Shown here piece by piece: positions 7,101-44,345 of a DNA stretch of 57,486 bases; position 1 is the stretch's first letter; the number at the start of each line of letters is the position of its first letter. The stretch is from Nanobdellota archaeon (GTDB taxonomy: Archaea > Nanobdellota > Nanobdellia > Pacearchaeales > GW2011-AR1): positions 1-57,486 of the forward strand of contig JBBSXA010000030.1 in assembly GCA_038045985.1 (NCBI GenBank), written 5' to 3'. A program made the position numbers and the translations under genes. The notes under the pieces are model-generated. The model was not told where the DNA came from. It saw only the letters and a program-made list of their open reading frames with translations, and did no database searches.

Positions 7101-7580
7101 AAGCATAATTTGGCAATAATAAAAATTAGGGGATTTTTTGATTATATTTATGAAAAAAAAATTGACAAAAAAACTGTCGAGAGTTTTTTGAAGATTTTGC
7201 ATATTTATTGCCCTTTTATTACTGAGGAAATTTGGGCAAACATTGGCGGAAAAAATTTCATAAGCTTAAGTTCTTGGCCAAAAGTTGATGAAAAAAAGAT
7301 AAATGAAGAGTTTGAAAAAGAAGATAAGATGATTGATGAAGTTGTCAGTGATGTGAATAACATTGTTAAGATAGTTAAAGAGCGCGGAAAAGAAGTTAGC
7401 AAGCTGTATTTGTATGTTATTCCTAAAGATGTCTCAGTTTATTTAGCTAATAAAAGCGAAATAGAGAAGAGAACTACTCTTAAGATGGAAGTTTACGCAG
7501 TCAATGACATAAATAAGAAAGATCCTGAAGGAAAATCTTCAAAGGCAAAGCCAAATCGTCCAGCCATATATTTAGAATAA
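4110..7580 (+). CDS. leuS: leucyl-tRNA synthetase, bacterial-type, with two in-frame domain insertions (1156 aa)
   Basis: FPYPSGEGLHMGHAF (HIGH), GYDSLGLPAENAAIKKG, TTRPDTVYGVTFMV and AVPAHDQRDYEFAKKYGL (CP1 editing), YRLKDWLISRQRYWGTPIP, SKSKGN (KMSKS). Confidence 0.95.
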   Translation: MAYNFQLIEKKWQKKWEEKKIFQVKENEKGKKKFYVLDMFPYPSGEGLHMGHAFVFSLGDIYARYKRLQGYNVLYPIGYDSLGLPAENAAIKKGIHPEVYTAKSIANFMKQQKAMGWSYDWNRMFKTSDPEFYVWDQWIFLKMLEKGLACRKKSAVNFCSKCQTVLANEQVVGGKCWRHEDTNVEIKHLEQWYYKTTNYAEELLSGLDKLEWPERAKTMQRNWIGKSYGTEIEFEVENPERKISNVVIVHGSADDKNDKEYNRHWMIWARKRLEENGIKVLAPNMPEPWGSSYESWKKEFEKISNGINENSILIGHSRGTAFFVKWLGETGKKVKKLILVAPWKVPDKEFKKSFYNFDIDITVKNQVNEIVYFTSNNEEADGRKSLKMFLDVIGGRVVELKNHGHFTREEMGTDEFPEILAEINPNEKWPIFTTRPDTVYGVTFMVISAQHSRLYELVTKEHKKSVDNFLKKLGSVSEKELELMGKDGVFTGSYAINPMTKERIPIYAGNFVVADYGSGMVMAVPAHDQRDYEFAKKYGLKIKQVISPMYTNMTGSDAYRHNEEPVKRKAVVAIVKNPKNNKYLLLQWKKNDWRGFVIGGLEKGEDLIKAAKREIEEETGYNDIKFVRKLDGVVHSRFYHEVKKQNREAEFETIYFELNSEKKSKVKEEENKIHSIVWIDEDKVDSFLVRDNDIQVIWRKFKGKECYEGYGKLINSGDFNDLDNDEAKEHIVKWLESKKLGGKKVQYRLKDWLISRQRYWGTPIPIVYCDKCGIIPLQEKELPVTLPKNVKFGKGNPLLSNEKWINTNCPKCKGKAKRETDTMDTFANSSWYYLRYADSKNKKKIFDSKMANYWCPIDQYIGGPEHITMHLIYIRFYTKFLRDLGLIDFDEPALRYFTQGVVKGSDGSRMSKSKGNVVEPLDTIEKYGADSLRLYLMSASAPDSDFDWDEKGIQSSFKFLHKVYDYFYDVKFSKADERVESKLNKTVKEVANLVEDFKHNLAIIKIRGFFDYIYEKKIDKKTVESFLKILHIYCPFITEEIWANIGGKNFISLSSWPKVDEKKINEEFEKEDKMIDEVVSDVNNIVKIVKERGKEVSKLYLYVIPKDVSVYLANKSEIEKRTTLKMEVYAVNDINKKDPEGKSSKAKPNRPAIYLE
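4842..5385 (+). other. Insertion 1 in LeuRS: YdeN/RBBP9-like alpha/beta serine hydrolase domain
   Basis: VVIVHGS...HWMIWARKRLEENGIKVLAPNMPEP...ILIGHSRGTAF...LILVAPW...NHGHFTREE. This is the family-typical order with a GHSxG nucleophile and a C-terminal HGHF. It lies between the IEFEV segment and TTRPDT. Confidence 0.7.
5754..6235 (+). other. Insertion 2 in LeuRS: NUDIX hydrolase domain
   Basis: Perfect Nudix box GGLEKGEDLIKAAKREIEEETGY (GX5EX7REUXEEXGU) at ~5904..5972. It lies between the CP1 end (KQVISP) and the YGKLINSGDF segment. Confidence 0.8.
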
Positions 7581-7591
7581 GACGATTTGGC
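7550..7591 (+). promoter_or_regulatory. 11-bp perfect hairpin whose 20-nt loop contains the leuS stop codon
   Basis: gccaaatcgtc (7550-7560) pairs with gacgatttggc (7581-7591); the TAA is at 7578-7580. Confidence 0.6.
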
Positions 7592-7610
7592 ATTAATTCG
7601 TCCAAGCTTG

Positions 7611-7652
7611 GCCAAATTAAAGCCAGGAAGGCCTGCAATTTATTTGGAGTGA
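7611..7652 (+). repeat. Ghost copy of the LeuRS C-terminus (AKLKPGRPAIYLE*), in frame with leuS after its TAA
   Basis: Compare the real end SKAKPNRPAIYLE*. The differences are mostly synonymous (cgt/agg, cca/cct, gcc/gca, ata/att, tta/ttg, gaa/gag). Confidence 0.7.
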
Positions 7653-7656
7653 TTTT

Positions 7657-9426
7657 CTACTCAAGCACAGCCTTAATTCTTCTTACCCCTGCAGAAACTG
7701 ATTCTTCCTTGATTATTTTGAATTTTCCAATGTCTTTTGTGTTTTTGGCATGAGGGCCTGAGCAAAATTCCTTTGAGAAATTTCCTATAGAATATATTGA
7801 TACAATTTTACCATACTTTTCTTCAAATGAGCCTATTGCTCCTGATTTTTTAGCCTGCTCTAAATTCATTTCTTCTCTTTTTATTTCCAGAGATTTTTTA
7901 ATTTGTTCATTTACAAGATTTTCAATTTGCTTTAGCTCTGATTCTGTCAATTTTCTTTCAAAGTTAAAGTCTAATCTCAATCTTTCTGGAGTTATGTTTG
8001 AGCCTTTCTGGAATATATTTTTATTTTTCAGCACTTGTCTAAGAGCGGTCAAGAGCAAATGCGTTGCTGTGTGAAGTTTTGTTGTTTGCTCAGAATTATC
8101 TGCCAAGCCACTTTTGAATTTTCCTGCAGAGGCTGTTTGAGAAAGTTTTTGATGCTCCTCTAATTTTTTAAAGAATGATTTTTCATCGATATTAATATTT
8201 TTCTCTTCTGCTAATTCTTTTGTCATTTCAAGCGGAAAGCCATAACTTTGATATAATAAAAAGACATTTTCTCCAGATATTCTTTTTTTCTTTTTTGTTA
8301 TGTTATCAAAAAGGCTTAGGCCCTTTTCAAGGGTTTTTTCAAATTTTTCTTCTTCTCTATTTATCTCATTGTAAATAAATTCTCTTTTTTTGTGTATGTC
8401 TTTGTAGTCTGAATAGGTTTCAAATACTTTTTCTGCAATTGGATTTATTAAATTTTGGTCTGTGAGTCCCAATTTTCTTAGGTTGATTATTGCTCTTCTT
8501 ATTAATCTTCTAAGAACGTATCCTTGCTCTTTGTTGCTTGGTATTATTTCTTCTGCTAATATGAATACTGAGGCTTTAATGTGGTCTGCAATTATTCTCA
8601 TTGTTTTTTTATGATCATTGTATTTCCTTTTTGATAACTCTTCAATCTTTTGTATTATGGGCTTCCAGACTTCTGTTTGATAGTTGTCTGTTGTTCCATT
8701 TAAAATTGCTAAAGTTCTTTCAACACCCATTCCTGTATCAACGTTTTTTTGCTTTGCTGGAAGATATTTTCCATTTTCATCTTTAATATACTCCATGAAG
8801 ACGTCATTCCAGATTTCAACCCATTTGTTCCCACCAGTTGCTAAGGTAGAATCATTTGGATTAAACTCTTCAGGTACTTTATTTGATTTATCTTTCCAGT
8901 AAAACATTTCTGTGTCAGGTCCGCAAGGTCCTGTTGTTCCTGCTGGTCCCCACCAATTGTCTTCTTTTCCTAATGGAGTGATTTTGTTAATCCCTAAAGA
9001 TTTCCAAATTTTTTCAGATTCAGTATCTCTCTTTGTAGTTTTATCACCTGCAAAAATTGTAACTGCTAATTTTTCTTTGGGAATTTTAAGCTCTTTTGTT
9101 AAAAACTGGAAACTGAATTCAATAGCTTCTTTTTTCCAGTAGTTTCCTAAAGACCAATTGCCCAACATCTCAAAAAATGTATGATGCGTTTCATCTCCGA
9201 CTTCATCTATGTCGCCGGTTCTTATGCATTTTTGTAGGCTAACTAGATTTTTCCCAAGAGGATGCTTTTGACCTAAAAGATAGGGAACTAAAGGATGCAT
9301 TCCTGCTGTTGTAAACAAAACTGACGGATCTTCTTTTGGAACTAGTGATGAGTTTTCTATACGTTTATGCCCTTTTGATTCAAAGAATTTTATGTACTTT
9401 TCAATAAGCTGTTTGCGGGTTATCAT
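7657..9426 (-). CDS. alaS: alanyl-tRNA synthetase, short bacterial-type form (589 aa, no C-Ala domain)
   Basis: FTTAGMHPLVPYLLG, FFEMLGNWSLGNYWKKEAI, editing-domain HTATHLL and CSGPH motifs. Confidence 0.9.
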   Translation of the reverse strand: MITRKQLIEKYIKFFESKGHKRIENSSLVPKEDPSVLFTTAGMHPLVPYLLGQKHPLGKNLVSLQKCIRTGDIDEVGDETHHTFFEMLGNWSLGNYWKKEAIEFSFQFLTKELKIPKEKLAVTIFAGDKTTKRDTESEKIWKSLGINKITPLGKEDNWWGPAGTTGPCGPDTEMFYWKDKSNKVPEEFNPNDSTLATGGNKWVEIWNDVFMEYIKDENGKYLPAKQKNVDTGMGVERTLAILNGTTDNYQTEVWKPIIQKIEELSKRKYNDHKKTMRIIADHIKASVFILAEEIIPSNKEQGYVLRRLIRRAIINLRKLGLTDQNLINPIAEKVFETYSDYKDIHKKREFIYNEINREEEKFEKTLEKGLSLFDNITKKKKRISGENVFLLYQSYGFPLEMTKELAEEKNINIDEKSFFKKLEEHQKLSQTASAGKFKSGLADNSEQTTKLHTATHLLLTALRQVLKNKNIFQKGSNITPERLRLDFNFERKLTESELKQIENLVNEQIKKSLEIKREEMNLEQAKKSGAIGSFEEKYGKIVSIYSIGNFSKEFCSGPHAKNTKDIGKFKIIKEESVSAGVRRIKAVLE

Positions 9427-29354: not shown

Positions 29355-29435
29355 CGGTTGCTCAGATGGTTTCTCAGACATTGGATGTCGGCATTTCTTC
29401 GGCTTTGGATTGGTGAAATCTTTCAAGGAGAATTT

Positions 29436-29759
29436 ATGTCGACGATGAAAGAAAAGAAAGGCTTGTCATTTAATATATGGATTGGCCTTTTAAGCCTTGC
29501 AGGATTGGCTTTGTATGTTTATGCCAACAGAGAGATTGTTTCTACCGTCTTTCTCGCGGAAGACTTCACAGCTTATCTTGGCAGAGGACTGATTTGCGGG
29601 ACTACAGGTTTTTTTTGGAGCCCTCTTATTGGTTTTCTTAAAGCACTTTTCACGGTTCTTGCCTTTGTTGTTGCTTTGGCGATTGTTGCATTTTTCTTCG
29701 CGTACATTATCTTTGGCTTCACATTTCAAGATGCTCTCAAAGCTGTGAGCGCATTGTAG
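29436..29759 (+). CDS. island membrane protein (~3 TM)
   Basis: AAGGAGaatttATG at 29436, in frame with track ORF 29358..29759. Confidence 0.55.
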   Translation: MSTMKEKKGLSFNIWIGLLSLAGLALYVYANREIVSTVFLAEDFTAYLGRGLICGTTGFFWSPLIGFLKALFTVLAFVVALAIVAFFFAYIIFGFTFQDALKAVSAL

Positions 29760-29767
29760 GGGGATTT

Positions 29768-30166
29768 ATGGAAATCAGAGACATAGTGTTTGCGATTATT
29801 GCAGTAGGATTAGTGGTGATTGTTTTTATAACAAAGCTTTCATCATACCAATCTGCAAAGGCACAGAAAACTTCGAGTTATGCAATGATCGCAATTGCAG
29901 CTGTTTTTATACTGATTGTTTTTGGATGGCTTGCCACTCAATACGATTATGATAAAATGTCTGCAGATTTTAAAGGGGGAAAGCTGGAACTTTCTTTGCA
30001 GCAATCAAAGAGAAATTCTGCCGGGGATTCTGTTTCTGTTCAAGATTCTATTAATTTTGAAGTTCCTGCCGAGAAGATAAATCAGGGATGGAAGATGATA
30101 GGAAAGATTGCCGGGAGCTTGGATGAATTGTTTAACAAACCTAAAGACAAACCTGACAGCTTGTGA
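29768..30166 (+). CDS. island membrane protein (2 TM plus a soluble tail)
   Basis: GGGGGatttATG; two hydrophobic helices. Confidence 0.55.
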   Translation: MEIRDIVFAIIAVGLVVIVFITKLSSYQSAKAQKTSSYAMIAIAAVFILIVFGWLATQYDYDKMSADFKGGKLELSLQQSKRNSAGDSVSVQDSINFEVPAEKINQGWKMIGKIAGSLDELFNKPKDKPDSL

Positions 30167-30228
30167 GGAGGAATATGGAAAGTGATGAACTTTTAATTAT
30201 TAACAATAAACTTTGAAGGAGGTTCTAT

Positions 30229-30525
30229 GTGAGTGAGCATGTTTCAAAAGAGGTTTTCGCTATTGTTCGCGCTCCTAAAAATATTGGAGATCATAGCAAC
30301 TATATTGTTACTTCTCCTTATTACAATCAGGGGCAGTTCAAGAGAGATGATTCAATAACTGTAGATCGAAAGAAATGGCTGGAAAATTTTCAACCTGAGG
30401 AAGGCGTATTTGTCATTCTTTTGGGTGTCTTTGGGAAACCTAAAGGTTTGCGTGCAAGCTCTGCTAGGTTCGCTACTCCTTATGAAATACAGTTTCATAC
30501 AGCAAAAAGCAAAGAGCAAGATTAA
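30229..30525 (+). CDS. small soluble island protein
   Basis: AAGGAGG precedes a GTG start. Confidence 0.5.
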   Translation: MSEHVSKEVFAIVRAPKNIGDHSNYIVTSPYYNQGQFKRDDSITVDRKKWLENFQPEEGVFVILLGVFGKPKGLRASSARFATPYEIQFHTAKSKEQD

Positions 30526-30538
30526 CGAAAGGATTTTT

Positions 30539-30790
30539 ATGAGTTTCATTCAGATTTTAGAATTTATTGTTGTGATGCTACTCATTTTGGTAGCTTTCAC
30601 TCAAGTGATTATTCCTCTTTTGAAGGGCACTCTTGTTTTTCCTTTTTTTCGCAAGGCTAGGAAGAAGGAGCATGAGATTGTTTCCATTGAGGAAGAGAGA
30701 GATGAGGTTCGGCTTGATCAAGAAATTGCTCGAAAAAGAGACAAGCTTGATCAGGAGAAGAAAAAGGGAGGTTTGTCAAAGGACAATTAA
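30539..30790 (+). CDS. small island protein: one TM plus a charged coiled-coil tail
   Basis: ATG at 30539, in frame with track ORF 30410..30790; hydrophobic N-terminus. Confidence 0.5.
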   Translation: MSFIQILEFIVVMLLILVAFTQVIIPLLKGTLVFPFFRKARKKEHEIVSIEEERDEVRLDQEIARKRDKLDQEKKKGGLSKDN

Positions 30791-30853
30791 TCCTTTTTAC
30801 ACGTTCGTTTTTTAAAACTTTAAACTGTTAACATTAAACTTTTGGAGAATTAT

Positions 30854-32047
30854 ATGTCAATCCAAAGCAGTTCTAGCATGAGGCAATTGTCGAAGATTCT
30901 TGGTATTGGTATTGCCGTCCTTGTTTTTTTGTTCTTGATAGTCGGAGCAGGAAAACTTTGGCAGAATGTCGATGCTAACGAGATCGTCGTGATTCAAGCC
31001 CCCGTGTCTGGAGAGTTGAACTGGCACGTCACACCTGGGCTTAAGTGGCAGGGATGGGGTTCAGTTACTACCTATCCAAAGAGAGCGATTTACCAGTTTG
31101 AGATTTCTGTGCGCTTCAATGATGGCGGCCATGGCACCATGTTTGGCAGTGTCCAATATGATATGCCAAATGATGTTGATAATCTTAAAAAACTACACAC
31201 GAAGTACGGATCAAAGGAAGCGATTCAGAGTCAGCTTGTTAAGACTGTTACTGACAAGTCGGTATACATGACCGGGCCTTTGATGACTTCAAAAGAAAGT
31301 TATGCTGAAAAGCGTAATTATCTTCTAAGCTATGTTGAAGATCAGATTGTGCATGGAGTCTACAAGACTCTCTCGAGAGAAGCAAAAATGATTGATCAGA
31401 TGACTGGGGCAGAGAAGACTATCACTGTTGTCGAGATCGTTTTGAAAGAGGGTATTCCTGAAAGGCAAGAGGAGGCTGTTCTAGCTAGTTTTGGCATCAG
31501 ACCGTTTAACTTTGCCATCGAAAAACTTCCATATGATGAGGCTGTTGAAACTCAAATAAAGATGCAGCAGCAAATCACTATGGATGTCCAGACAGCAATT
31601 GCCGATGCGAAGAAGGCTGAACAGAGGACAATCACTGTTGTTGAACAAGGCAAGGCTGATGCTGCCAAGGCGAAGTGGGATCAAGAAGTCATAAAGGCCC
31701 AGCAGGTTACTGAAGCTGAGCAGAAGTTGGAAGTTGCTCGACTTGGGGCTCTTGCTGCCGAACAATACAAAAAGGAGCAGATTCTTAGAGCAGATGGTGA
31801 TTCCGAATACAAGCGCAGAGTCATGGAAGCTGATGGCGCTCTTACTCAGAAGCTCGCGACTTACAAAGACGTCAATATCCGGTATGCTGAGGCTATTGAG
31901 AAGTACACAGGAGCTTGGGTACCTTCTATTGTTATGGGAGGTGATGGGAAATCCGGAACTTCAAACGGTGCTCAGGATTTGATCAGTCTCCTTTTAGCAA
32001 GGACTGCAAAAGACCTTTCCCTAGATCTTAGCGTCAAGGGCAAGTAA
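30854..32047 (+). CDS. SPFH/Band-7 (flotillin/YqiK-like) membrane-scaffold protein
   Basis: N-terminal TM, an SPFH-like core (EIVVIQAPVSGELNWHVTPGLKW...), and a long Ala/Glu/Lys/Gln coiled coil (AKKAEQRTITVVEQGKADAAKAKWDQEVIKAQQ...). Confidence 0.65.
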   Translation: MSIQSSSSMRQLSKILGIGIAVLVFLFLIVGAGKLWQNVDANEIVVIQAPVSGELNWHVTPGLKWQGWGSVTTYPKRAIYQFEISVRFNDGGHGTMFGSVQYDMPNDVDNLKKLHTKYGSKEAIQSQLVKTVTDKSVYMTGPLMTSKESYAEKRNYLLSYVEDQIVHGVYKTLSREAKMIDQMTGAEKTITVVEIVLKEGIPERQEEAVLASFGIRPFNFAIEKLPYDEAVETQIKMQQQITMDVQTAIADAKKAEQRTITVVEQGKADAAKAKWDQEVIKAQQVTEAEQKLEVARLGALAAEQYKKEQILRADGDSEYKRRVMEADGALTQKLATYKDVNIRYAEAIEKYTGAWVPSIVMGGDGKSGTSNGAQDLISLLLARTAKDLSLDLSVKGK

Positions 32048-32126
32048 GTCTTCTTTCAGACACACTCTGGCCAAGAGTGTTATGCACCTTCCTCTCTTGT
32101 ACTGAGAGTTACGCTCTTTCTGCCAT

Positions 32127-32158
32127 GAAGGCCTTTGATGTAAAAGTTAGAGGCCTTC
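32127..32158 (+). terminator. 8-bp GC-rich hairpin after the SPFH gene, with a T8 run ~17 nt downstream
   Basis: GAAGGCCT ...16 nt... AGGCCTTC; a second hairpin ACACTCT ggcca AGAGTGT lies at ~32061-32079. Confidence 0.35.
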
Positions 32159-32249
32159 GATTTGATTTAGTCTTCTTTTTTTTCTGATTGTTTTCTATGT
32201 GGAATTCTAAATTTTTTCTTCCGGAATTTCAGAAATCTATCTTTCTTAC

Positions 32250-32603
32250 CATATTTTTTTTGCAAAATTTCAGGTTAATATGCATGCAAGTTATGCGATT
32301 TACAAAAATATTACCTGTCTTTTTATTATTAACAATTATATTTTAGAATCTTACATTAAATCTTTGGTTTTTTACTTAACTGGTAATTTAGCAGACACTT
32401 TTTTATTTAATTTTCCGTTTAAACATATTTTTTTGCAAAATTTATGATAAGAAAGCTAAATTTATTTGATTAATTTGGACAATTTTCTGTAATTTCTACT
32501 TTATTTTATTATTAATATTATTCTATTTTGATTAAAGGTTATATTTAGACATTATTTTACATTTTAATTTTTTTCTTAAAAACATATTTTTTTTGCAAAA
32601 TTT
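32250..32603 (+). repeat. Three copies of a ~21-nt box CATATTTTTTT(T)GCAAAATTT spaced ~160-175 nt apart in an AT-rich intergenic region
   Basis: Boxes at 32250-32270, 32424-32443 and 32583-32603. The spacers share degenerate similarity (ttttattattaa...). Confidence 0.7.
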
Positions 32604-32662
32604 TAAATAAGGTTTATTTATTCTTGAGCAAATTTAATAAACTCTTATTTCTTTTTGCTTTT

Positions 32663-34102
32663 ATGAATATTAATTATGGAGACATGGGTTTTAAGGCTGG
32701 ACTGGAAATTCATCAGCAGCTTGACTCTAAAAAATTGTTCTGCAACTGCCCGAGCATTTTAAGAGGAGACACCCCCAGCTTTGAGATTAAGAGAAAATTG
32801 CATACTGTTGCGGGCGAATCTGGAGAAATTGATGTTGCAGCAGAGCACGAAGCTGCTCTTGACAGGGAGTTTGTTTATCAGGCTTACGATACTACATGCC
32901 TGGTTGAGCTGGATGAAGAGCCTCCCCATGAAATAAATAAAGATGCGTTAATGACTGCTTTGCATATTTCTCTTTTGATGAATGCCAAGATAATTCCAAT
33001 TTCACAGATAATGAGGAAGACGGTTATTGATGGAAGCAATACTGGAGGTTTTCAGAGAACTGTGATGATTGCCAGGGATGGTTTTATTGAGACTTCTTAT
33101 GGAAATGTTCGAATTTTAGGAATTTTTCTTGAAGAAGATTCTGCCAGACTTGTTTTGAAAGATGAAAAAAGCGCTGTTTACAGGCTTGACAGGCTTGGAA
33201 TTCCTTTAATTGAAATTGCCACAGAGCCTGATTTGAAAAATGCAGAACACGCAAAAGAAACTGCTTTGAAAATTGGAGAGATACTTAGAGCGTGCAAAGT
33301 AAAAAGAGGAATTGGAACTATTAGACAGGACATTAATATTTCTATAAAAGGAAGCAATAGAGTTGAGCTTAAAGGCTTTCAAGATCCTAAAATAATGTTG
33401 AAGAGTATTGAAGAAGAAGTAAGAAGGCAGCTGGCTTATGTTGGCGCTGGAAAAAAAAATTCTTCTGAAGTCAGAAATGTTTTGCCTAATGGAAGTTCTG
33501 AGTTTATGAGGCCGATGCCTGGTGCAGACAGAATGTATCCTGAAACTGATCTTCCTTTGCTGAAAATTCCATTGGATTTTATTAATAGCGCTAAGAAAAA
33601 CTTGCCTAGGCTAAGAGAAGAAATTGAAGAAGAATTAAGAAATCAGGGGCTTAGCCAGGAATATATTTCTATTCTTTTGAAATCTAATGAGATTGAAAAG
33701 TACAAAGAACTTTATTATATTGTTCCAAAGCCAAATTTTGTTGCAAAGGCTGTTTTGGTTTTTCCAAAAGAGATTGCCGCGAAAAAAGGGATTGCATTTG
33801 AAAGGGTTTTAGAAATACTCGATGAGCATTATTTTGAAGTTTTTAATAAAGTTGCCCAGGGAAAACTCAAAGAAGAAGATGTGAAGCATATTTTTGAGAG
33901 GCTTGTTGATGGAAAGAGTTTTTCCGAAGCTGCGAAACTTGACAAGCTTAGCGTGAATGATTTGGAAGAAGCTGTCCTTAAAATTATGAAAAGCAAGCCA
34001 GGACTTTCAGAGAATGCTTATATGGGGTTGGTTATGAGGGAGCTTAGAGGAAAAATTAGTGGAAAAGAAGCGAGCGAAATAATAAAGAAACTTATGCACT
34101 AA
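32663..34102 (+). CDS. gatE: Glu-tRNA(Gln) amidotransferase subunit E (short form)
   Basis: GLEIHQQLDSKKLFCNCPS, a GatB/E catalytic core and a C-terminal YqeY-like tail MGLVMRELRGK. The ATG at 32663 is preferred to the TTG at 32624. Confidence 0.88.
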   Translation: MNINYGDMGFKAGLEIHQQLDSKKLFCNCPSILRGDTPSFEIKRKLHTVAGESGEIDVAAEHEAALDREFVYQAYDTTCLVELDEEPPHEINKDALMTALHISLLMNAKIIPISQIMRKTVIDGSNTGGFQRTVMIARDGFIETSYGNVRILGIFLEEDSARLVLKDEKSAVYRLDRLGIPLIEIATEPDLKNAEHAKETALKIGEILRACKVKRGIGTIRQDINISIKGSNRVELKGFQDPKIMLKSIEEEVRRQLAYVGAGKKNSSEVRNVLPNGSSEFMRPMPGADRMYPETDLPLLKIPLDFINSAKKNLPRLREEIEEELRNQGLSQEYISILLKSNEIEKYKELYYIVPKPNFVAKAVLVFPKEIAAKKGIAFERVLEILDEHYFEVFNKVAQGKLKEEDVKHIFERLVDGKSFSEAAKLDKLSVNDLEEAVLKIMKSKPGLSENAYMGLVMRELRGKISGKEASEIIKKLMH

Positions 34103-34136
34103 TTTTTCTGCAGCTTCGTCCAAGCGTGGCCAAATC

Positions 34137-34193
34137 AGAGGAAAGATTTCAGGGAGCGAGGCTGTTGAAATAATCAGGAAGCTGATGAAGTGA
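34137..34193 (+). repeat. Ghost copy of the GatE C-terminus (RGKISGSEAVEIIRKLMK*), +1 frame relative to gatE
   Basis: Compare the real end RGKISGKEASEIIKKLMH*. Many differences are synonymous. It is preceded by tcgtccaagcgtggccaaat (34116-34135). Confidence 0.7.
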
Positions 34194-34330
34194 GAAGATT
34201 TAATCTTTAATGCCAAATAATTTAAATATTTTGGCATATTACTTTTTGCTGTGCAAAAAGTGTTGCATAAAACCCCCAATTTTTTTGGCTCCAAAAGATT
34301 TATATAGTTTTATTTTATAACATATGTTAT

Positions 34331-34924
34331 ATGAAGAAACCGATTGTTCATAAAAAATACCTTAGGTTATATGAAGAAACTGCTAGGCAGAAGGTTTTAG
34401 AAGTTTTGTTTAGATTTCCTGATAAAGAATTTAGCCTTTCTGATTTAGCAAAAGAGGCTAGTGTTGCAAAAGCTAATATAGGAAAAATATTGTTGGAATT
34501 GGAGAAGTGGGAGTTTATTTCAGTAACCAGGCTTAGTAAGATTTGGAGAATTATGGCTAATAGGGACAATTGGGATTTTAAGAAAAGTAAAATAATATAC
34601 AATTTAAATTTTGTTTATAAGAGTGGTTTAGTTGAATTCCTAATAGATTATTTCAAAAATCCAAAATGTATTGTTCTTTTTGGGAGTTTTGGGAAGGGCG
34701 AAGACATTGCCAGTTCAGATATAGATATAGCTATAGAAAATGAAAATTCTGAAGGTTATAAAGTTACTGGCTTGAGAGAACTTTTAGAGTTTGAAAAAAT
34801 AATCAGAAGAAATATACAACTCCACCTGTTTAATCAAAGTAATGTCGATGAAGGCGTTTTTAACAATATAATCAATGGTGTTGTTTTATTTGGATTTTTG
34901 GAGGTTAATCATGGAAAAAAATAA
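34331..34924 (+). CDS. minimal nucleotidyltransferase (MNT) with an N-terminal wHTH; antitoxin-type partner of HEPN
   Basis: LFGSFGKGEDIASSDIDIAI (GSx10-DxD). Confidence 0.75.
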   Translation: MKKPIVHKKYLRLYEETARQKVLEVLFRFPDKEFSLSDLAKEASVAKANIGKILLELEKWEFISVTRLSKIWRIMANRDNWDFKKSKIIYNLNFVYKSGLVEFLIDYFKNPKCIVLFGSFGKGEDIASSDIDIAIENENSEGYKVTGLRELLEFEKIIRRNIQLHLFNQSNVDEGVFNNIINGVVLFGFLEVNHGKK

Positions 34925-35354
34925 AATCGAAGAATTAATCAGCAAGAATTCTTTAAGAAGGAGAGAAATTGACTTTGAGAGAGTTAAATCTCTCTTAAAA
35001 TCTGCAGAAGTTACAGTAAAGGTAGTAAAAAATATTTCTTTGAATGATGAAACCGCAACAACAATTTTTAGAGAGCTTTATGAGGCAATAAGGCAATTAG
35101 GAGAAGCAAAATGGTGGCTTAATGGTTACGAGCCCTACGGATTAGGCAGTCATGGCCTGGCTTTAGACATTCTAAAAGAATTTAATGTTAAAAATAAAGT
35201 AAAACTTAATTATCTTGATAGATTTAAAAAAATACGCCACGATGCTAATTATAGAGGAATGTTTGTATCTTTTTCTCAAGCTAAAGAACTTATTGAATTT
35301 TGGGATTCTTGCGGAAAAGAGATTTTAGAGTCGATTAAGAAGCTGATGAAATAA
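34911..35354 (+). CDS. HEPN-domain protein (toxin-type partner of MNT)
   Basis: Overlaps the MNT stop by 14 nt. All-helical, with KKIRHDANYRG resembling the HEPN (PF05168-like) signature. Confidence 0.6.
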   Translation: MEKNKIEELISKNSLRRREIDFERVKSLLKSAEVTVKVVKNISLNDETATTIFRELYEAIRQLGEAKWWLNGYEPYGLGSHGLALDILKEFNVKNKVKLNYLDRFKKIRHDANYRGMFVSFSQAKELIEFWDSCGKEILESIKKLMK

Positions 35355-35649
35355 GTTTGGCTCGTTCTTCTAGTCTATTCAATTCTTCGTATAAACCAAA
35401 GACAGTAGTCTTTTCTAACTTGAGGTCTTCTAAACCTAAAGCCCTCATATTTCTCACAGCTTTTGCAGCAATGTAATCTACATCATTATGAAATGCATAA
35501 GCAAAAAATCTTTTTACAAAACTTTTTGATTCATACTGATTGATTATTTCCTCTAAGTCATTTTTTGATAGATCTTCATATTTTTTTATTCTTTCTAGAA
35601 TGTGGCTACAATACAAAATTCTTTCAATTCTAGCTAGTCCTCCGATCAT
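35335..35649 (-). CDS. hypothetical small helical protein
   Basis: ATG ORF; no family recognised. Confidence 0.4.
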   Translation of the reverse strand: MIGGLARIERILYCSHILERIKKYEDLSKNDLEEIINQYESKSFVKRFFAYAFHNDVDYIAAKAVRNMRALGLEDLKLEKTTVFGLYEELNRLEERAKLISSAS

Positions 35650-35691
35650 CTTAGTTTTTCTTCTTCATAAAATTTAACTGCTTTTTCTAAT

Positions 35692-36363
35692 TCATATTCT
35701 ATGTTGTTTATTTTTTTCTATAAATTCGATTATATGCTTTGCATTTTTTGTAAATGAATTTCTATTATTTTTTATACGTTTCCTTAATTTTGGCATTTGT
35801 AAGTATGTAAGAGTTCCACAGACGATGCCAAAACCAAGTGTCCATGGTAAAAAAGATACATTAGGATTTTGGTTTGTTACGAATATCATGTCAAGAGCTT
35901 TTCCAATGAAATACCCTCCTGAAAACTCATATATTGGCCAAGCCTCTGGTTCGTTTAATGAGAGAATAGAATTTATTTTTAACCAATAAGATGATGTAAT
36001 TTCCTCTAATTTTTCAACTTCATTGTTGTACTTTTTTCTTTCTTCTTTATTCCATGGAAATTTAAGTTTAAATTTTGCTTTACTTGTCACTTCATCAAAT
36101 ATCTTTTCTGGGTTTTCTCCTCCAAGAATTCTTCTTAAATAGATATTATTTTCATACTCACTTGTTATCTTTTTGATTTCTTCTTTGGTAGAAGTTATTC
36201 TTGTTTCAATCTTGTAACTTCTTGAATTAAGTCTTTGCATTTGCTCATTATCTATGTTTAATCTTTCTTCAAGATCTTTAAATTCAGAATACAATGTTTT
36301 CATGTGATTGTGGTTGTCATAGATTTTATAAAACTTATCACCCTTGTACAGGGTGTATAACAA
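35692..36363 (-). CDS. hypothetical protein: N-terminal coiled coil, C-terminal 2 TM
   Basis: The ORF has a TTG start at 36363 or an ATG at 36303. Hydrophobic segments FLPWTLGFGIVCGTLTYL. Confidence 0.45.
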   Translation of the reverse strand: MLYTLYKGDKFYKIYDNHNHMKTLYSEFKDLEERLNIDNEQMQRLNSRSYKIETRITSTKEEIKKITSEYENNIYLRRILGGENPEKIFDEVTSKAKFKLKFPWNKEERKKYNNEVEKLEEITSSYWLKINSILSLNEPEAWPIYEFSGGYFIGKALDMIFVTNQNPNVSFLPWTLGFGIVCGTLTYLQMPKLRKRIKNNRNSFTKNAKHIIEFIEKNKQHRI

Positions 36364-36396
36364 TAGGTTTTTATATTATGGATTTCTGTTGTTTTT

Positions 36397-37146
36397 ATGG
36401 ATAAAAATTATCATGAATTGGTTAAAGTAGGATTAACTGATGGAGAAACAAAAGTTTATCTTGCGTTGATTGAATTAGGAAGCTCTACAGTTGGACCTAT
36501 TGTAAAAAGATCTAAGGTTGCTTACTCGAATATTTATGAAATTCTTAATAGATTAATTGAGAAAGGTTTGGTTAGCTTTATTATTAAGGAAAAAACCAAG
36601 CACTTTCAAGCAGCTTCTACATCAAATATTTTGGAATATTTGGATATGAAGGAAAAAGAAATTTTTGAGCATAGAGCGTCTTTAAAGAGGATTTTGCCTG
36701 ATTTGGAAAGATTAAGAGAAAAAGGTGATAAACAAGAAGCAGAGGTTTTTGTGGGGTTAAAAGGATTAAGAAGCGCTTATGAAAAAATGCTTAAAGGATT
36801 AACAAGAAAAGACGAAGCTTTATTTTTTTATCTGCATGATAATGCTTATGCTGATCAATCAGATAATTTTTATAGAAGCATCTGGAATATTACAAGAAAA
36901 GTTAATATGAATGGCATTGCGAATAAATATTATGAAAAGTCTTGGTTTGCAAAGAAATCGAAGAATGTTAATTTTGTTAAGATAAAGTTTGTAAATTATC
37001 CTATTCCTGGAAATATTGATATTGTAAAAGATATGGTTTTTATTGTTTCATGGAAGCCTTCTGTTGTGGGAATTCTTATACATTCCCAAAGTATTGCAGA
37101 TGGAATGAGAAAATATTTTAACGAAGTTTGGAATTCTGTGAAGTAA
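36397..37146 (+). CDS. TrmB-family transcriptional regulator
   Basis: LTDGETKVYLALIELGSSTVGPIVKRSKVAYSNIYEILNRLIEKGLVSFI. Confidence 0.8.
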   Translation: MDKNYHELVKVGLTDGETKVYLALIELGSSTVGPIVKRSKVAYSNIYEILNRLIEKGLVSFIIKEKTKHFQAASTSNILEYLDMKEKEIFEHRASLKRILPDLERLREKGDKQEAEVFVGLKGLRSAYEKMLKGLTRKDEALFFYLHDNAYADQSDNFYRSIWNITRKVNMNGIANKYYEKSWFAKKSKNVNFVKIKFVNYPIPGNIDIVKDMVFIVSWKPSVVGILIHSQSIADGMRKYFNEVWNSVK

Positions 37147-37197
37147 CAAACTTTAAAAACTCTTTTTCAATAAGTTATTCATTATTTGTTTTTTGAG

Positions 37198-37786: not shown

Positions 37787-37846
37787 ATGCAACGCTCATA
37801 CGTTTCAGAAATAAAGGCAGGGAATGATGTTTTACTTAAGGGATGA
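37787..37846 (+). pseudogene. Orphan copy of the aspS 5' end (MQRSYVSEIKAGNDVLLKG*)
   Basis: 55/60 nt identical to 39185-39244 (47/48 over the first 48 nt). The repeat starts exactly at the ATG. Confidence 0.85.
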
Positions 37847-39184
37847 TTAACTATACTATATCATCTTAAAGAAATAGGTTAAACTATACGATATGATAGT
37901 AAAGTTTATAAACTCTGAAATTATGTAATATTCATGGATGTTGAGTCTGAGTTTTACAAGCAAAATCCCTGGTGGGAAGGAAAATTTGAAGAAAAAAGCA
38001 TATCTAGGGATATTTATTTGAATGAGATATTCAGGAATATGAAAAGTAAAGAGATTATATTTTTAACAGGATTAAGAAGAATTGGAAAAACTACTATTTT
38101 AATGCAAATAATAAGGCGACTATTAACCAACACAAAACCTGAAGATGTTCTCTTTATAAGGCTAGACTCTTTTAATTTATTAGAGTATTCAATTCATCAA
38201 TTAGTTGAAGAATACAGGAAAATTCATAAGAAGTCTGTTTTAGATTTTTTTTATTTGTTTTTAGATGAAGTCACCTCTAGGGGTAATTTTGAACAAGAAT
38301 TAAAGAGTTTATATGACAACGAAAATATAAAGGTTATCTGTTCTTCATCAATTGCTACCTTCATGAGGGACAAAAAAGCCAGTCTTACCGGCAGAACAAA
38401 AACAATCGAGGTAATGCCCTTGACTTTCCAGGAATTTTTAAAATTTAAGGGGGCAAAGATAGGCAAAGCAGATAAATCAAAACTAGAAAGCTATTTCAAA
38501 GATTATTTGAAAATTGGTGGAATTCCCCATTATGTCTTGACAGAAGATAGGGCTTATTTAAACGAATTAGTTGAGAGCATTGTCTACAAAGATATAATTG
38601 CATATCATAAAATATCTGGAGAAAAAGCTGTAAAAGAATTATTTGTGCTGTTATGCCAAAGAGTTGGAAAGCCAATGAGCTATAATAAACTTGCAGAATT
38701 ATTAAAGATTTCAGTAGATAGTGTTAAGAGATATGTTGGTTATTTTGAAAAAGCATATTTATTTTATGTGGTTGATAGATATTCTAAATCTGCAAATGAG
38801 AAAGTAACATCCCCCAAAAAAATCTATATTGGTGACGTTGGTATAAAAAATATTATAACTGAATTTAAGGATTTGGGAGCAAGTTATGAAAACCTCGTAT
38901 TCTTAAAAATTAAAAGTAAAAATCCAAATTATTATCTGGAAAATTCAATAGAGATAGATTTTATTACAAAAGATAGCTTAATTGAGGCAAAATATAACCA
39001 AGAGCTTAATGAAAAGCAATTGGAAGCTTTTAACGCTATAAAATCAAAGAATAAGATTATAGCTAATGGATATAAGTTTTTTTTAGACTGATTTTACTTG
39101 ATTAATTTTTTTGCTTTATTTTCTTTCTTTTCCTAGTTTTTCCTAAGCAAATATATTTAAAAAATGTTGTTCTTTAGTGTTTTC
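37847..39184 (+). mobile_element. 1.34 kb insertion carrying only a DUF4143 AAA+ ATPase gene, bounded by the duplicated aspS 5' end
   Basis: Direct repeats at 37787-37846 and 39185-39244; no integrase or transposase lies inside. Confidence 0.6.
37934..39091 (+). CDS. AAA+ ATPase with a C-terminal DUF4143 (PD-(D/E)xK-like) domain, COG1373 type
   Basis: NPWW, LTGLRRIGKTT (Walker A), LFLDEV (Walker B), LTGRT, GGIPHY, and C-terminal EIDFI...LIEAKY. Confidence 0.8.
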   Translation: MDVESEFYKQNPWWEGKFEEKSISRDIYLNEIFRNMKSKEIIFLTGLRRIGKTTILMQIIRRLLTNTKPEDVLFIRLDSFNLLEYSIHQLVEEYRKIHKKSVLDFFYLFLDEVTSRGNFEQELKSLYDNENIKVICSSSIATFMRDKKASLTGRTKTIEVMPLTFQEFLKFKGAKIGKADKSKLESYFKDYLKIGGIPHYVLTEDRAYLNELVESIVYKDIIAYHKISGEKAVKELFVLLCQRVGKPMSYNKLAELLKISVDSVKRYVGYFEKAYLFYVVDRYSKSANEKVTSPKKIYIGDVGIKNIITEFKDLGASYENLVFLKIKSKNPNYYLENSIEIDFITKDSLIEAKYNQELNEKQLEAFNAIKSKNKIIANGYKFFLD

Positions 39185-40477
39185 ATGCAACGCTCATATG
39201 TTTCAGAAATAAAGGCAGGGAATGATGTTTTAATCAAAGGATGGGTTCATGAATTAAGAGTTCTTAGTAAGATGGCTTTTATTCTGCTGAGAGACAGTTC
39301 TGGGATTGTTCAGTGTGTTGTTAAGGATAAAGATGTTTCTAATACGACTTTGGAAAGTGTTGTTGAAATAAGGGGAAAAGCAAAACCTGCCAAAGTTAAG
39401 GCTGAAGGTGTTATAGATGATGTTGAGATTGATGTTTCTGAAATTAATATTTTGAGCAAGGCAGATAAACTGCCTATTCAGGTTAATGAAAAAGCTGTCA
39501 GCTCTGAGTTGTCTAATAGATTGGATTGGAGATCTTTAAGCTTGAGAATACCTCGGTCAAGAGCTATATTCAAAGTTCAGGCTAAAATAGTTGAAGGTAT
39601 GCAAGAATATCTTAATCATAATGGATTTTTGCAGGTTTTTACGCCATGCCTGATGGGGGTTGCTTCAGAATCAGGCAGTGAAGCATTTGAAGTAAAATAT
39701 TTCAATACTAAAGCTTATTTGAGACAGGATCCTCAGCTTCACAGGCAGCTGACTATCTTAGGAGGCATAGAAAAGATTTATGATATTGGGCCTAGCTGGA
39801 GGGCTGAGAATAGCAATACAATAAAGCATTTATGCGAGCATAGGACTTGCGCTGTTGAAATGGCTTTTATAGAATCTGAAAGAGATGTTATGAGAGTTGA
39901 AGAGCAGGTTATTATTTCTGCTTTTGAAAAGGTAAATAAAGAGTGTAGGAAAGAATTGGAGATTTTTGGAATTGAGTTGAAAACTCCTAAAGCACCATTT
40001 CTTGAATTTAATTTCCCAGAAATTTATGATATTTTGAAAAAGTTAGGAAAGAAAATTAAAGAAGGAGAAGATTTAGACTCAGAAGCTGAAAAATTGTTTT
40101 GGGGATATGTGCAAAAAAAGCATCCTGGAACAGAGTTCTATTTTGTAAATAAGTTCCCGTTTAAGGAAAAACCATTTTATGTTTATTGTGATGAAAAAAG
40201 CGAATATGCAAGAAGCACTGATCTTTATTATAAAGGAATGGAGATGTCTTCTGGTGGACAGAGGGAAAATCGCTACGCTAAACTCATTAAAAATGTTGAA
40301 GAGAAAAAAGTGCCTTTAAAGTCTGTTGAGTGGTTCACTAAATTCTTTAAGTACGGAGCTCCAACTCACGGAGGATTTGCTTTGGGAGTAGAAAGAATAA
40401 CAATGATGCTTCTTGGAGTGGAAAACATAAGAGAGGCTGTTTTGTTTCCGAGAGATCCTGGGAGATTGACGCCTTAA
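39185..40477 (+). CDS. aspS: aspartyl-tRNA synthetase, archaeal type
   Basis: Class IIb motifs and C-terminal GGFALGVERITMMLLGVENIREAVLFPRDPGRLTP. The ATG at 39185 matches the duplicated native start. Confidence 0.9.
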   Translation: MQRSYVSEIKAGNDVLIKGWVHELRVLSKMAFILLRDSSGIVQCVVKDKDVSNTTLESVVEIRGKAKPAKVKAEGVIDDVEIDVSEINILSKADKLPIQVNEKAVSSELSNRLDWRSLSLRIPRSRAIFKVQAKIVEGMQEYLNHNGFLQVFTPCLMGVASESGSEAFEVKYFNTKAYLRQDPQLHRQLTILGGIEKIYDIGPSWRAENSNTIKHLCEHRTCAVEMAFIESERDVMRVEEQVIISAFEKVNKECRKELEIFGIELKTPKAPFLEFNFPEIYDILKKLGKKIKEGEDLDSEAEKLFWGYVQKKHPGTEFYFVNKFPFKEKPFYVYCDEKSEYARSTDLYYKGMEMSSGGQRENRYAKLIKNVEEKKVPLKSVEWFTKFFKYGAPTHGGFALGVERITMMLLGVENIREAVLFPRDPGRLTP

Positions 40478-43653: not shown

Positions 43654-43661
43654 TTAAAAAA

Positions 43662-43685
43662 ATCATCTATGCTTTATCTGATTAG
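43662..43685. repeat. Left direct repeat of the vapBC cassette; on the minus strand it is a ghost of the Zn-ribbon gene end (QIKHR*)
   Basis: atcatctatgctttatctgattag versus 44322-44345 atcacctatgctttatctgaatag (22/24). Confidence 0.75.
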
Positions 43686-43725
43686 AACAGAAACATTTAT
43701 ATATAAATTATAAATTATAATTTAT

Positions 43726-43941
43726 ATGAAGACAATAGCATTAAAGGAAAGAACTTTTGAGATGATTAGGGAGCTTAAAGAGAAAGAAAAAGCAGAGTCT
43801 TTTGACAAATTGATAGCAGAGCTAATCATGCACAAAGAAAAGATTCCTAAATCTATGTTTGGAGCTTTGAAGGGAAAAACAAAAAGCTTTACTAGAAAAG
43901 AGAGGGAAGAAATTATGGGGGATGACAAAAGGTGGCGATAG
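43726..43941 (+). CDS. vapB: VapB-type antitoxin
   Basis: 71-aa charged protein whose ORF overlaps the downstream PIN gene by 10 nt. Confidence 0.6.
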   Translation: MKTIALKERTFEMIRELKEKEKAESFDKLIAELIMHKEKIPKSMFGALKGKTKSFTRKEREEIMGDDKRWR

Positions 43942-44309
43942 TTTTTGACACTTATGCATGGATAGAATATTTTAACGCCACAAAAAAAGGGAATACTGTT
44001 AAAACATATCTTGAAGAAGAAAAAATTATTACCCCTACAATTGTTCTTTTAGAATTAAGCTATAAATCAAGCAAAGAGGGATGGGATTTTAGCAAATATT
44101 TAAGTTTTATAAAAGCTAATTCTACTATTGTTGGGTTTAATGAAAAATTCATTTTTACATTCGGGAAATCTTACAATGATATTAAACAACAAGTTAAAGG
44201 CATTGGAATTACAGACATTATAATAATCCATACTGCAATAATGAATGATGCCAAAATTTTGACGGGGGATGAACATTTCAAGAATGTAGATAGTGCTGTT
44301 ATGCTTTAG
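43932..44309 (+). CDS. vapC: PIN-domain toxin
   Basis: IVFDTYAWIEY, ITDIIIIHTA, ILTGDEHF (acidic PIN residues); GTG start. Confidence 0.8.
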   Translation: MAIVFDTYAWIEYFNATKKGNTVKTYLEEEKIITPTIVLLELSYKSSKEGWDFSKYLSFIKANSTIVGFNEKFIFTFGKSYNDIKQQVKGIGITDIIIIHTAIMNDAKILTGDEHFKNVDSAVML

Positions 44310-44321
44310 CCCTTTGCCTTA

Positions 44322-44345
44322 ATCACCTATGCTTTATCTGAATAG
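44322..44345. repeat. Right direct repeat of the vapBC cassette, overlapping the real 3' end of the Zn-ribbon gene
   Basis: See 43662-43685. Confidence 0.75.

Follow-up and report, generated by a model that had tools for sequence, protein, structure and literature searches.

We analysed a 57,486-nt stretch of the genome of a Nanobdellota archaeon (GenBank assembly GCA_038045985.1, contig JBBSXA010000030.1), referred to here as the window, in which the 3' ends of leuS, gatE and a Zn-ribbon gene and the 5' end of aspS each occur twice, with inserted DNA between the two copies. All four duplicated gene termini were confirmed as genuine and far beyond chance, and they fall into two classes: the insert is a palindrome at leuS and gatE and a gene cassette at aspS and the Zn-ribbon gene. 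The four loci are probably horizontally spreading "home-and-rescue" insertions of selfish DNA in DPANN archaea, similar to the mobile open reading frames (mORFs) of fungal mitochondria. The window is AT-rich (34% GC) and is a contig of a metagenome-assembled genome (MAG) of a DPANN archaeon, with its nearest AspRS relatives in Woesearchaeota and Nanoarchaeota MAGs (72–77% identity). It keeps the ancestral gene order deduced from relatives, GatD…GatE-PvlArgDC-AspRS-AsxRS2-metallophosphoesterase-MBL hydrolase, broken up by several accessory insertions.

At each of the four loci, and in the related loci L007, L058 and L134 (comparison loci are designated by L numbers), a functional end (T1) is joined to the gene, followed by the mobile DNA and then by a truncated ghost end (T2). 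The host genes in the window stay intact, with the truncated copy beside each insert. As a control for chance, we searched with the terminal peptides of 856 open reading frames (ORFs) from the window and 60 related loci, a hit being defined as intergenic, on the same strand and scoring at least 22 bits. Ghosts were found for 10 of 1712 terminal peptides versus 1 of 1098 internal peptides, with 3 hits on the opposite strand; the window accounts for 3 of the 10, and the Zn-ribbon gene, too short for that scan, comes in addition. Together with the repeat identities given below, this enrichment at termini bears out the four duplications of the original prediction, which had been made from the DNA sequence of the window.

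The theme also recurred outside the window, with genuine further cases in L007, L134, L004, L058 and L028 and on 57 metagenome contigs. Presence and absence varied among relatives, with empty sites in L007 and L058 for aspS, in L119–L123 for gatE, in L134 for the Zn-ribbon gene and in L141 for leuS. No integrase or transposase family was found by Pfam among the 63 window ORFs scanned, in agreement with the original prediction, and Pfam scans detected no reverse transcriptase domain in the window. Rfam held no family matching the palindrome region or the cassette-adjacent sequences.

The palindromic element at leuS and gatE

The leuS gene occupies positions 4110–7580 and gatE (the GatB/E gene, with Pfam domains GatB_N and GatB_Yqey) positions 32624–34102, both on the plus strand. 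Directly before both ghosts lies a shared 21-mer, TTCGTCCAAGC[T/G]TGGCCAAAT, at 7597–7617 and 34115–34135, with an A preceding the core. A 20-mer common to the two ghosts had been noted earlier and is real: with up to 3 mismatches allowed, the 21-mer had no match in 100 shuffles of the window. The same prediction had taken the two ghosts to be cargo-free scars of excised or decayed cassettes; instead, they are insertion sites of a widespread 27-nt palindrome, which is itself the cargo. The leuS hairpin is extended by flanking bases to 7588–7625, and the leuS T1 sequence CCAAATCGTCC resembles the junction of two palindrome copies. A 12-mer, TTAATGCCAAAT, is common to the leuS and gatE loci, at different positions relative to the palindrome.

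The 21-mer had 57 exact matches in metagenomes, all on AT-rich contigs (28–42% GC) and many from groundwater, which left 51 contexts after removal of duplicates. From these sequences the unit is an imperfect palindrome of ∼27 nt, T-N-A-TTCGTCCAAGCKTGGCCAAAT-N'-A, predicted to fold into a hairpin with two invariant mismatches. The hairpin comprises 11 pairs, with two inverted half-sites around a 4-nt centre. The base ahead of the 21-mer was A in 42 of the 51 contexts, and the flanking pair at −2/+1 was complementary in 47 of 50 sequences (AU, 27; CG, 14; GC, 6; unpaired, 3). Diverged copies carried compensatory changes within the core, and all six frames of the palindrome are free of stop codons.

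Read in the direction of the gene, the usual anatomy is T1 with its stop codon, a spacer of 3–45 nt, the palindrome, and the ghost T2 starting 1–4 nt later; the spacer usually holds an inverted copy of the start of T1, giving a hairpin that encloses the stop codon. A stop codon of an ORF of at least 50 codons lay on the same strand within 45 nt upstream of 60% of the palindromes, compared with 14% of random positions on the same contigs, and an abutting direct repeat accompanied 40%, compared with 1.5%. The minimum free energy of the 48 nt upstream was −7.1 kcal/mol for palindromes and −4.7 kcal/mol for random positions (p=2e-5). The targets included leuS, gatE, gyrB (L062, L090, L094 and L111), thrS, mnmA and several tRNA 3' ends (L066, L068, L071, L079, L100 and L105, plus a second, variant palindrome on L074), and one copy lay within a canonical tRNA-Ser intron (L073). 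Copies internal to ORFs were translated as SSK(L/R)GQ(I/V), in the ThrRS linker of L074 and L083, in the N-terminus of a radical-SAM-like protein in L072, in L078 and in the mnmA of L007; the window mnmA is an empty site.

A covariance model detected the palindrome just twice in the window. Relatives that had not been chosen for the element, ∼900 kb in all, yielded only the L007 copy and, at the same site of mnmA, a single decayed one in L003; its occurrence is therefore sporadic, with comparatively many copies in the window. The model detected no degenerate palindrome at the aspS or Zn-ribbon junctions, and thus the two classes of insertion do not share that element. Each locus held a single palindrome, not one per junction, flanked by repeats of ∼5–35 nt, with neither a target-site duplication of fixed length nor separate terminal inverted repeats. 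In young copies T1 and T2 were identical over 22–26 nt (L086), 16 nt (L097) and 17 nt (L116).

Among the 231 ORFs on the palindrome contigs, no recombinase family was enriched in Pfam searches, which found only one fragmented serine recombinase, and the Y1/HUH transposase was absent from the top Pfam families. A scan of viral contigs gave one chance match, in a GC-rich methyltransferase gene. In a limited literature search, neither the 27-nt palindrome nor a role of DUF4143 as a mobile gene that replaces termini was found described. The palindrome appears to be a genuinely new small element, whose mobilising enzyme was not found on the contigs examined. The fragmented recombinase is a large serine recombinase broken into three ORFs (L066, 188–2271), ∼7 kb from a tRNA-Arg(CCU) with palindrome and ghost 3' end. 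Large serine recombinases were considered as mobiliser and rejected: the suspected family (L074, L083 and L109) proved to be ThrRS, the only true member being the L066 fragments. On the minus strand of L074, in ∼100 nt around the variant TTCGTCCAAGCTTGGCCAAAG, two opposite palindromes stand back to back past a tRNA 3' end, followed by its ghost.

Several other features were seen around these two loci. LeuRS (1156 aa) contains an extra Ser_hydrolase/alpha-beta hydrolase domain (aa ∼247–420) and a NUDIX domain (aa ∼567–684) inside the enzyme. The neighbouring AlaRS (7657–9426, minus strand) is only 589 aa long, and the convergent leuS/alaS arrangement is also present in L140. The alaS gene had been considered as the fourth case; its supposed ghost (LGRINAK versus RRIKAVLE) was unconvincing, and the actual fourth case is gatE at 32.6–34.1 kb. 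Between DUF1003 and gatE lie ∼9 kb of accessory genes (23898–32600), including many small ORFs with no family hit and a HerA/DUF87-like ATPase (24343–26658), where L134 has a single 206-aa ORF; this region might represent either a defence island or an element that has integrated. A further ∼3 kb (34194–37185) are inserted between the gatE ghost and PvlArgDC and contain a MarR-like/nucleotidyltransferase gene (34331–34924), two minus-strand ORFs and a TrmB-family regulator; in relatives, gatE and PvlArgDC are separated by only 30–54 nt.

Gene cassettes at aspS and the Zn-ribbon gene

At aspS a 59-nt direct repeat (37787–37845 and 39185–39243) is 93% identical between its copies. The ghost consists of ATG, 19 codons and a stop, and the promoter region before it is conserved in L007 and L134. 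In the empty sites of L007 and L058, PvlArgDC is followed directly by aspS, and the 5' site of the empty allele contains AAAGGATGGGTTCATGAA. The cassette between the repeats encodes an AAA_14/DUF4143 ATPase. All copies of this cassette share ∼90 nt upstream, and conservation ends at the stop codon; the centres of the ACTATAC-N10-TAAAG motifs are inverted complements, 90% complementary in L124, where they would form a hairpin. DUF4143 has been classed in the PD-(D/E)XK superfamily (PMC3424549), the sequence retains a D…ExK motif, and the protein is possibly the homing nuclease of the aspS insertion.

The ATPase gene is mobile, as had been proposed. It has more than 100 cluster representatives with 74–92% identity, spread over Pacearchaeota, Woesearchaeota and Nanoarchaeota MAGs, and the protein is 90–92% identical in many lineages where GatE is at most 81% and AspRS at most 77% identical, a similarity that no housekeeping protein of the window approaches. 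It lies directly before aspS in three lineages, those of the window, L004 and L134. L134 has a GatE 66% identical to that of the window and an ATPase 91% identical, and its aspS ghost, truncated at the identical GGAT, matches that of the window in type; the ghost thus moves with the mobile block instead of being a scar formed on the spot. Nucleotide identity between the window and L134 was 80–97% in the cassette and 76–88% in the first ∼330 nt of aspS and then fell abruptly to 50–60%; at the protein level, the N-terminal OB-fold domain of AspRS was 86% and the catalytic domain 42% identical. These comparisons show a mosaic aspS and a block of promoter, ghost, cassette and N-terminal-domain segment that moves as a unit.

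Exact-protein look-ups with the window DUF4143 protein and the closest GatE (P0002) gave no match. Repeats flanking DUF4143 in L124 and L127 were considered and dismissed as chance level only. The chimeric AspRS of L134 (6187–7479) has a catalytic domain only 42–45% identical to all other AspRS compared. In L127 an orphan coding remnant, …KELRKSILQKAFNGELT*, lies just past the DUF4143 cassette (4230–4290) with no gene body attached; it presumably resembles the C-terminus of restriction S subunits. In an Aenigmatarchaeota MAG (L028, 6829–6885), a ghost AspRS C-terminus, SPRDPERLVP, lies 47 nt past the real stop, with no palindrome between.

The Zn-ribbon gene (44323–44556, minus strand, 77 aa) has its 3' end repeated over 30 nt at 87% identity, with vapBC between the copies. 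VapC has a PIN domain (PF01850, E=5e-12), VapB has weak DUF7557/VAPB hits, and the two genes overlap by 10 nt, the layout of a type II toxin-antitoxin (TA) system. The cassette recurs in L007 (VapB 79% and VapC 62% identical) with the same promoter-side boundary at another target, the 5' end of the asnS-like AsxRS2, flanked there by an 87-nt repeat of the gene start with 75% identity and orthologue-like differences; the flanking repeats in the window and L007 are unrelated. L134 has the Zn-ribbon gene without vapBC, and its terminal codons share their synonymous states with the window ghost, not with T1. Other TA genes were found as well. In L007 a PemK/MazF cassette (1572–2101) lies directly upstream of the AsxRS2 ghost, so that the AspRS-AsxRS2 spacer holds two TA cassettes in tandem, both beginning ATAGAAAGATTTATA. 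A ParE toxin gene lies at 52336–52617 of the window.

L058 presents the same ghost/insert/real-end arrangement at gatE. A LAGLIDADG gene confirmed by Pfam (6799–7917) lies between a gatE ghost N-terminus, EKLGLKCGLEIHQ, and the real gatE start, EKQGLKIGLEIHQ (6693–7926 overall). It is free-standing and directly follows a Fic gene, which in L122 directly precedes gatE. Judged from its sequence, L058 carries a bona fide homing-endonuclease gene in this arrangement.

Table 1. Positions in the window of the functional and ghost gene ends and of the inserted DNA (asterisks, stop codons)
Feature	Position	Strand	Remarks
leuS functional 3' end (T1), KPNRPAIYLE*	7548–7580	+	minority KPN(R/K)P type, accompanies the element
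leuS spacer with inverted copy (gacgatttggc) of the leuS end and 12-mer ATTTGGCATTAA common with the gatE locus	7581–7596	+	
Palindromic element core at leuS, A+TTCGTCCAAGCTTGGCCAAAT	7596–7617	+	covariance model 53.3 bits
leuS ghost 3' end (T2), KPGRPAIYLE*, consensus native type	7620–7652	+	4 nt from the stop of convergent alaS
gatE functional 3' end (T1), LRGKISGKEASEIIKKLMH*	34043–34102	+	final codons pair with the start of T1 itself, giving a hairpin
Palindromic element core at gatE, TTCGTCCAAGCGTGGCCAAAT	34115–34135	+	covariance model 47.8 bits
gatE ghost 3' end (T2), IRGKISGSEAVEIIRKLMK*	34134–34193	+	resembles the termini of the closest GatE relatives
Second small palindrome, GCCAAAT/ATTTTGGC half-sites, including the 12-mer common with the leuS locus	34207–34240	+	
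aspS ghost 5' end (MQRSYVSEIKAGNDVLLKG*), behind native-type aspS promoter	37787–37846	+	
ATPase cassette 5' region: two 21-nt ACTATAC-N10-TAAAG motifs, then TATA box	37847–37933	+	conserved
AAA_14 + DUF4143 ATPase (PD-(D/E)XK fold), motif EIDF...IEAK intact	37934–39091	+	
aspS 5' segment coding the OB-fold domain, co-transferred with the cassette	39185–39530	+	L134 identity drop at ∼39500–39550
Zn-ribbon ghost 3' end, CSNQIKHR*	43661–43690	−	7 nt past the metallophosphoesterase stop
vapBC cassette: promoter with palindromic ATAAATTATAATTTAT, vapB 43726–43941, PIN vapC 43932–44309	43691–44309	+	
Zn-ribbon functional 3' end, CTIQIKHR*	44321–44350	−	

Origin of the two ends and proposed routes of insertion

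We compared T1 and T2 codon by codon at 11 independent loci (141 codons with 147 nucleotide differences). The codon pairs were identical in 47 cases, synonymous in 54 and nonsynonymous in 40, whereas random placement of the 147 differences gave an expectation of 88±3.9 nonsynonymous codons, and none of 20,000 simulations gave 40 or fewer. The differences were distributed 41/28/78 over the three codon positions and included 12 switches between codon families of Ser, Arg or Leu, and the ghosts retained their reading frame and stop codon. This pattern points to functional and ghost copies that stem from different lineages; a copy decaying in place would look otherwise.

At leuS, 11 of 33 nt differ between the two ends, yet only 1 amino acid is changed. 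Among ∼105 DPANN LeuRS homologues, ∼90 end in the ghost type, KPG(K/R)P(A/G)IY(L/V)E, whereas the KPN(R/K)P ending is found together with the element, namely in the window, L093 and the syntenic L140, where the element is decayed; leuS of L141 has the native-type ending and no element. Between the window and L093, nucleotide identity was ∼60% in the gene body, 87% in T1 and spacer, 100% in the palindrome and 74% in the ghost, with unrelated sequence downstream. At gatE, the closest GatE (81% identical), P0007 and P0015 have termini similar to the ghost (GKISGSEAVEIIRKLMK), whereas a GatE clade of 66% identity ends exactly as T1 (GKISGKEASEIIKK) does, down to AGY versus TCN serine codons. The LeuRS consensus, the GatE clades and the host-versus-insert identities show T1 with its hairpins and insert as the young, shared and, by these comparisons, mobile part and T2 as the native resident end at the 3' loci. 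The ghost at these loci is of the native type, whereas the aspS ghost travels with its block.

In gyrB of L062 and L090, ∼64 nt before the palindrome were identical, and the ghosts differed at 4 synonymous sites. Insert and replacement terminus were far better conserved between genomes than the host gene. Taken together, the sequence comparisons show that the insertions are horizontally mobile and create mosaic host genes. The layout and the comparisons of T1 with T2 also uphold the earlier proposal that the incoming DNA carries a replacement end. T1/T2 identity was highest in the first 9–18 nt beside the palindrome (77% and 70%, versus ∼57% beyond), and in L116 the ends matched perfectly for 17 nt and then had a synonymous difference in nearly every codon. 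This identity peak looks like a crossover point.

We propose that an insertion enters a conserved gene at its very 5' or 3' terminus and supplies a replacement copy of that end. Its cargo is either a gene cassette with its own promoter (the AAA_14/DUF4143 ATPase at aspS, vapBC at the Zn-ribbon gene) or the miniature non-coding palindrome of leuS and gatE, usually preceded by a hairpin made from the replacement terminus. To enter, the terminus carried by the element would pair and recombine with the resident gene. One crossover of a circular or looped intermediate (Campbell type) would yield the observed layout, and so would two crossovers that bring in a block already formed. A double-strand break may trigger entry, as in homing, and a break-inducing nuclease would make the process true homing; candidates are the LAGLIDADG protein of L058 and, more tentatively, DUF4143 or, at the palindrome loci, some factor acting in trans. 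Only insertions at termini would survive, since only there does a short duplication leave the gene intact. The synonymous divergence of the replacement end would reflect its origin in another lineage and may also guard against re-cutting or deletion.

Several observations weigh against this account. The DUF4143 cassette also occurs away from aspS, in unrelated neighbourhoods and without detectable duplication (L124, L127 and L135), and a second PIN TA pair in the window (54053–54631, between msrA and msrB) has no ghost. Insertion at aspS destroys no sequence of the empty allele, so that classical homing-site immunity is not obviously applicable there, and at the aspS joint of L134 the sequences share only ∼55% identity, which is difficult to explain by ordinary homologous recombination. 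The 231 ORFs of the palindrome contigs yielded no mobilising enzyme, and the nuclease activity and cleavage site of DUF4143 and VapC are putative. The repeats of young copies (16–26 nt) and of ORF-internal copies (∼5–17 nt) look like target-site duplications that arose upon insertion. Because of the identical flanks of young copies and the 5–17-nt repeats of ORF-internal copies, the palindrome probably also has a dedicated insertion step besides recombinational spread.

A more radical version, to which we give very little credence, is that the palindrome loci are natural RNA-guided "home-and-rescue" drives. The hairpin would be the handle and the ghost T2 the guide of a small RNA that leads a nuclease encoded in trans to the native end of the gene wherever a genome lacks the element. 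The recoded T1 would make carriers immune and keep the essential gene working, and the ghost would be kept as guide rather than as relic.

Among the other explanations, we regard classical site-specific integration as unlikely. A tyrosine or serine integrase encoded elsewhere would insert DNA whose attP restores the gene end, the palindrome being the recombinase-binding core; cassettes and palindrome alike would then be either remnants or mini-elements mobilisable in cis. The attL/attR-like layout, the tRNA 3' ends among the palindrome targets, the half-sites, which are inverted about a 4-nt centre and keep their asymmetric mismatches, the crossover-core-like identity peak and the serine recombinase fragments on L066 all fit this scheme. 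However, the scans revealed neither an integrase in the window nor an enriched recombinase on the 57 contigs, the loci each have a single palindrome instead of one at each junction, and the "core" differs from locus to locus, which would require attP to be made anew for over 40 targets. No motif is common to the cassette junctions, one vapBC cassette occupies two unrelated targets, and the ∼330-nt co-transfer tract at aspS is not duplicated, which misfits Campbell insertion of a 59-nt attP. The original suggestion of one trans-acting terminus-targeting recombinase likewise found no support in the cassette junctions, the vapBC targets or the recombinase search. Ordinary transposition or replication slippage, with duplication in place followed by neutral decay and no horizontal transfer of termini, could account for the identical flanking repeats of L086, L097 and L116 and for the 93% identity of the aspS repeat. 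It predicts mostly nonsynonymous differences, whereas 40 were observed against the expected 88±4, with an excess at third positions; moreover, ghosts keep their stops and frames, orthologous gyrB ghosts differ only synonymously, T1 and insert are more conserved than the host gene, and the repeats range from ∼5 to ∼87 nt, unlike a transposase-made duplication. We consider it quite improbable.

Selection by the host for an RNA or DNA signal is a highly improbable alternative. The palindrome would act as a terminator, as a substrate of the splicing endonuclease or in mRNA stability or 3'-end formation, and the ghost as an alternative C-terminus or as the 5' UTR of the following gene, in line with the co-variation of the hairpin, its preferred position just past stop codons, the more stable folding of the upstream 48 nt and the copy in the tRNA-Ser intron of L073. 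The frame of leuS continues into its ghost, whereas gatE and its ghost differ in frame; this, with T1 already ending in a stop, also led us to reject translational readthrough or bypass. There is no Rfam family and no T-tract after the element, copies inside ORFs are translated, the element is sporadic, and minimal in-frame copies lack complementary exon sequences for a bulge-helix-bulge motif, which their purine-rich direct repeats cannot form; splicing by the tRNA endonuclease was rejected on this ground. A diversity-generating retroelement was likewise rejected: the leuS T1/T2 changes include t>a, c>a and t>g and are not adenine-specific, and Pfam found no reverse transcriptase domain in the window. 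Finally, assembly or chimera artefacts in the metagenomes might be suspected from a MAG contig and a 21-nt core of common k-mer size. The same structures were found in independent JGI, ENA, NCBI and Logan assemblies, orthologous loci have diverged (window, L093 and L140; L062, L090, L094 and L111; L007 and L003), ORF-internal copies are in frame, and flanks co-vary, which leaves artefacts almost no probability.

Known systems and other features of the window

The proposed home-and-rescue insertions have their closest known match, by analogy, in the mORF arrangement of fungal mitochondria. There an inserted foreign C-terminus is followed by an endonuclease ORF and, downstream, by the native C-terminus (C*), an arrangement interpreted as horizontal transfer (PMC3630166); examples are atp6 of Allomyces macrogynus, atp6, atp9, cox2 and nad3 of Glomus, atp9 of Rhizopus and cox2 of Mortierella, and homing has been shown biochemically (PMC3630166). 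Common to both are the order of gene core, foreign terminus, insert and native relic, and an inserted terminus that is diverged in DNA but nearly identical in protein, with a relic that matches close relatives (leuS, gatE and the Zn-ribbon gene). Unlike mORFs, the present insertions lie in DPANN archaeal chromosomes rather than organelles and use 5' as well as 3' ends. Their cargo is a DUF4143 ATPase, vapBC or a bare 27-nt palindrome in place of a GIY-YIG or LAGLIDADG ORF, with L058 as the exception. The aspS ghost moves along with its block, and the palindrome loci resemble a protein-free miniature version. Incoming DNA with a replacement gene end is known from fungal mitochondria, whereas the kinds of cargo, the small palindrome among them, appear new.

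Archaeal and bacterial integrative elements that use tRNA or protein-gene ends, which attP restores, also duplicate the target terminus, preserve the gene and include tRNA 3' ends among their targets; here, in contrast, the window has no integrase, the inserts measure 30 nt to 1.4 kb, the repeats are diverged and orthologue-like, and there is one palindrome per locus. The hairpins of REP/RAYT or IS200/IS605 elements are likewise imperfect with conserved mismatches, but abutting duplications occur in 40% of the contexts here and no RAYT or IS200-type gene was found on the palindrome contigs. MITEs and other IS-derived elements differ from the present element, which has one palindrome and variable flanking repeats. 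Rickettsia palindromic elements (RPEs) are 100–150 nt long, and palindromes of the RPE, REP and MITE kinds are short, non-coding and scattered in compact genomes. Like RPEs, the present palindrome is short, can sit in frame in ORFs and is stop-free in all frames; unlike them, it is ∼27 nt long, strongly prefers the last codons of genes and brings a duplicated, recoded terminus with a target-derived hairpin. Synthetic home-and-rescue or cleave-and-rescue drives are inserted at one end of an essential gene and supply a recoded copy of that end, the original being displaced. The present system differs in being natural, and its nuclease or guide is putative.

DPANN archaea have tiny genomes with few recognisable mobile elements. 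The loci described here point to a route by which accessory genes and domain-sized pieces of essential genes cross lineages; the N-terminal domain of aspS appears to have moved between lineages that are 42–60% identical elsewhere in the gene. This bears on phylogenies of aminoacyl-tRNA synthetases and on the reliability of marker genes. The huge uncharacterised AAA_14/DUF4143 family (COG1373) gains a testable role as a putative selfish ATPase-nuclease of the homing type. Ghost termini may serve as flags of recent transfer, and gene callers may report them as short spurious ORFs or chimeric termini.

Other features of the window were also recorded. Rfam found a third tRNA on the minus strand at 2007–2153, which is 147 nt long and so has a long intron, and which ARAGORN missed; a tRNA-Thr of 93 nt (55412–55504, minus strand) presumably contains an intron too. 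The mnmA gene (50383–51714, minus strand) carries two GC-rich, in-frame, Gly/Arg-rich insertions of ∼40 aa each. Their repeats (50574–50611 and 51207–51244) are 79% identical over 38 nt, the L007 orthologue lacks them, and they constitute a mini-insertion family different from the palindrome.

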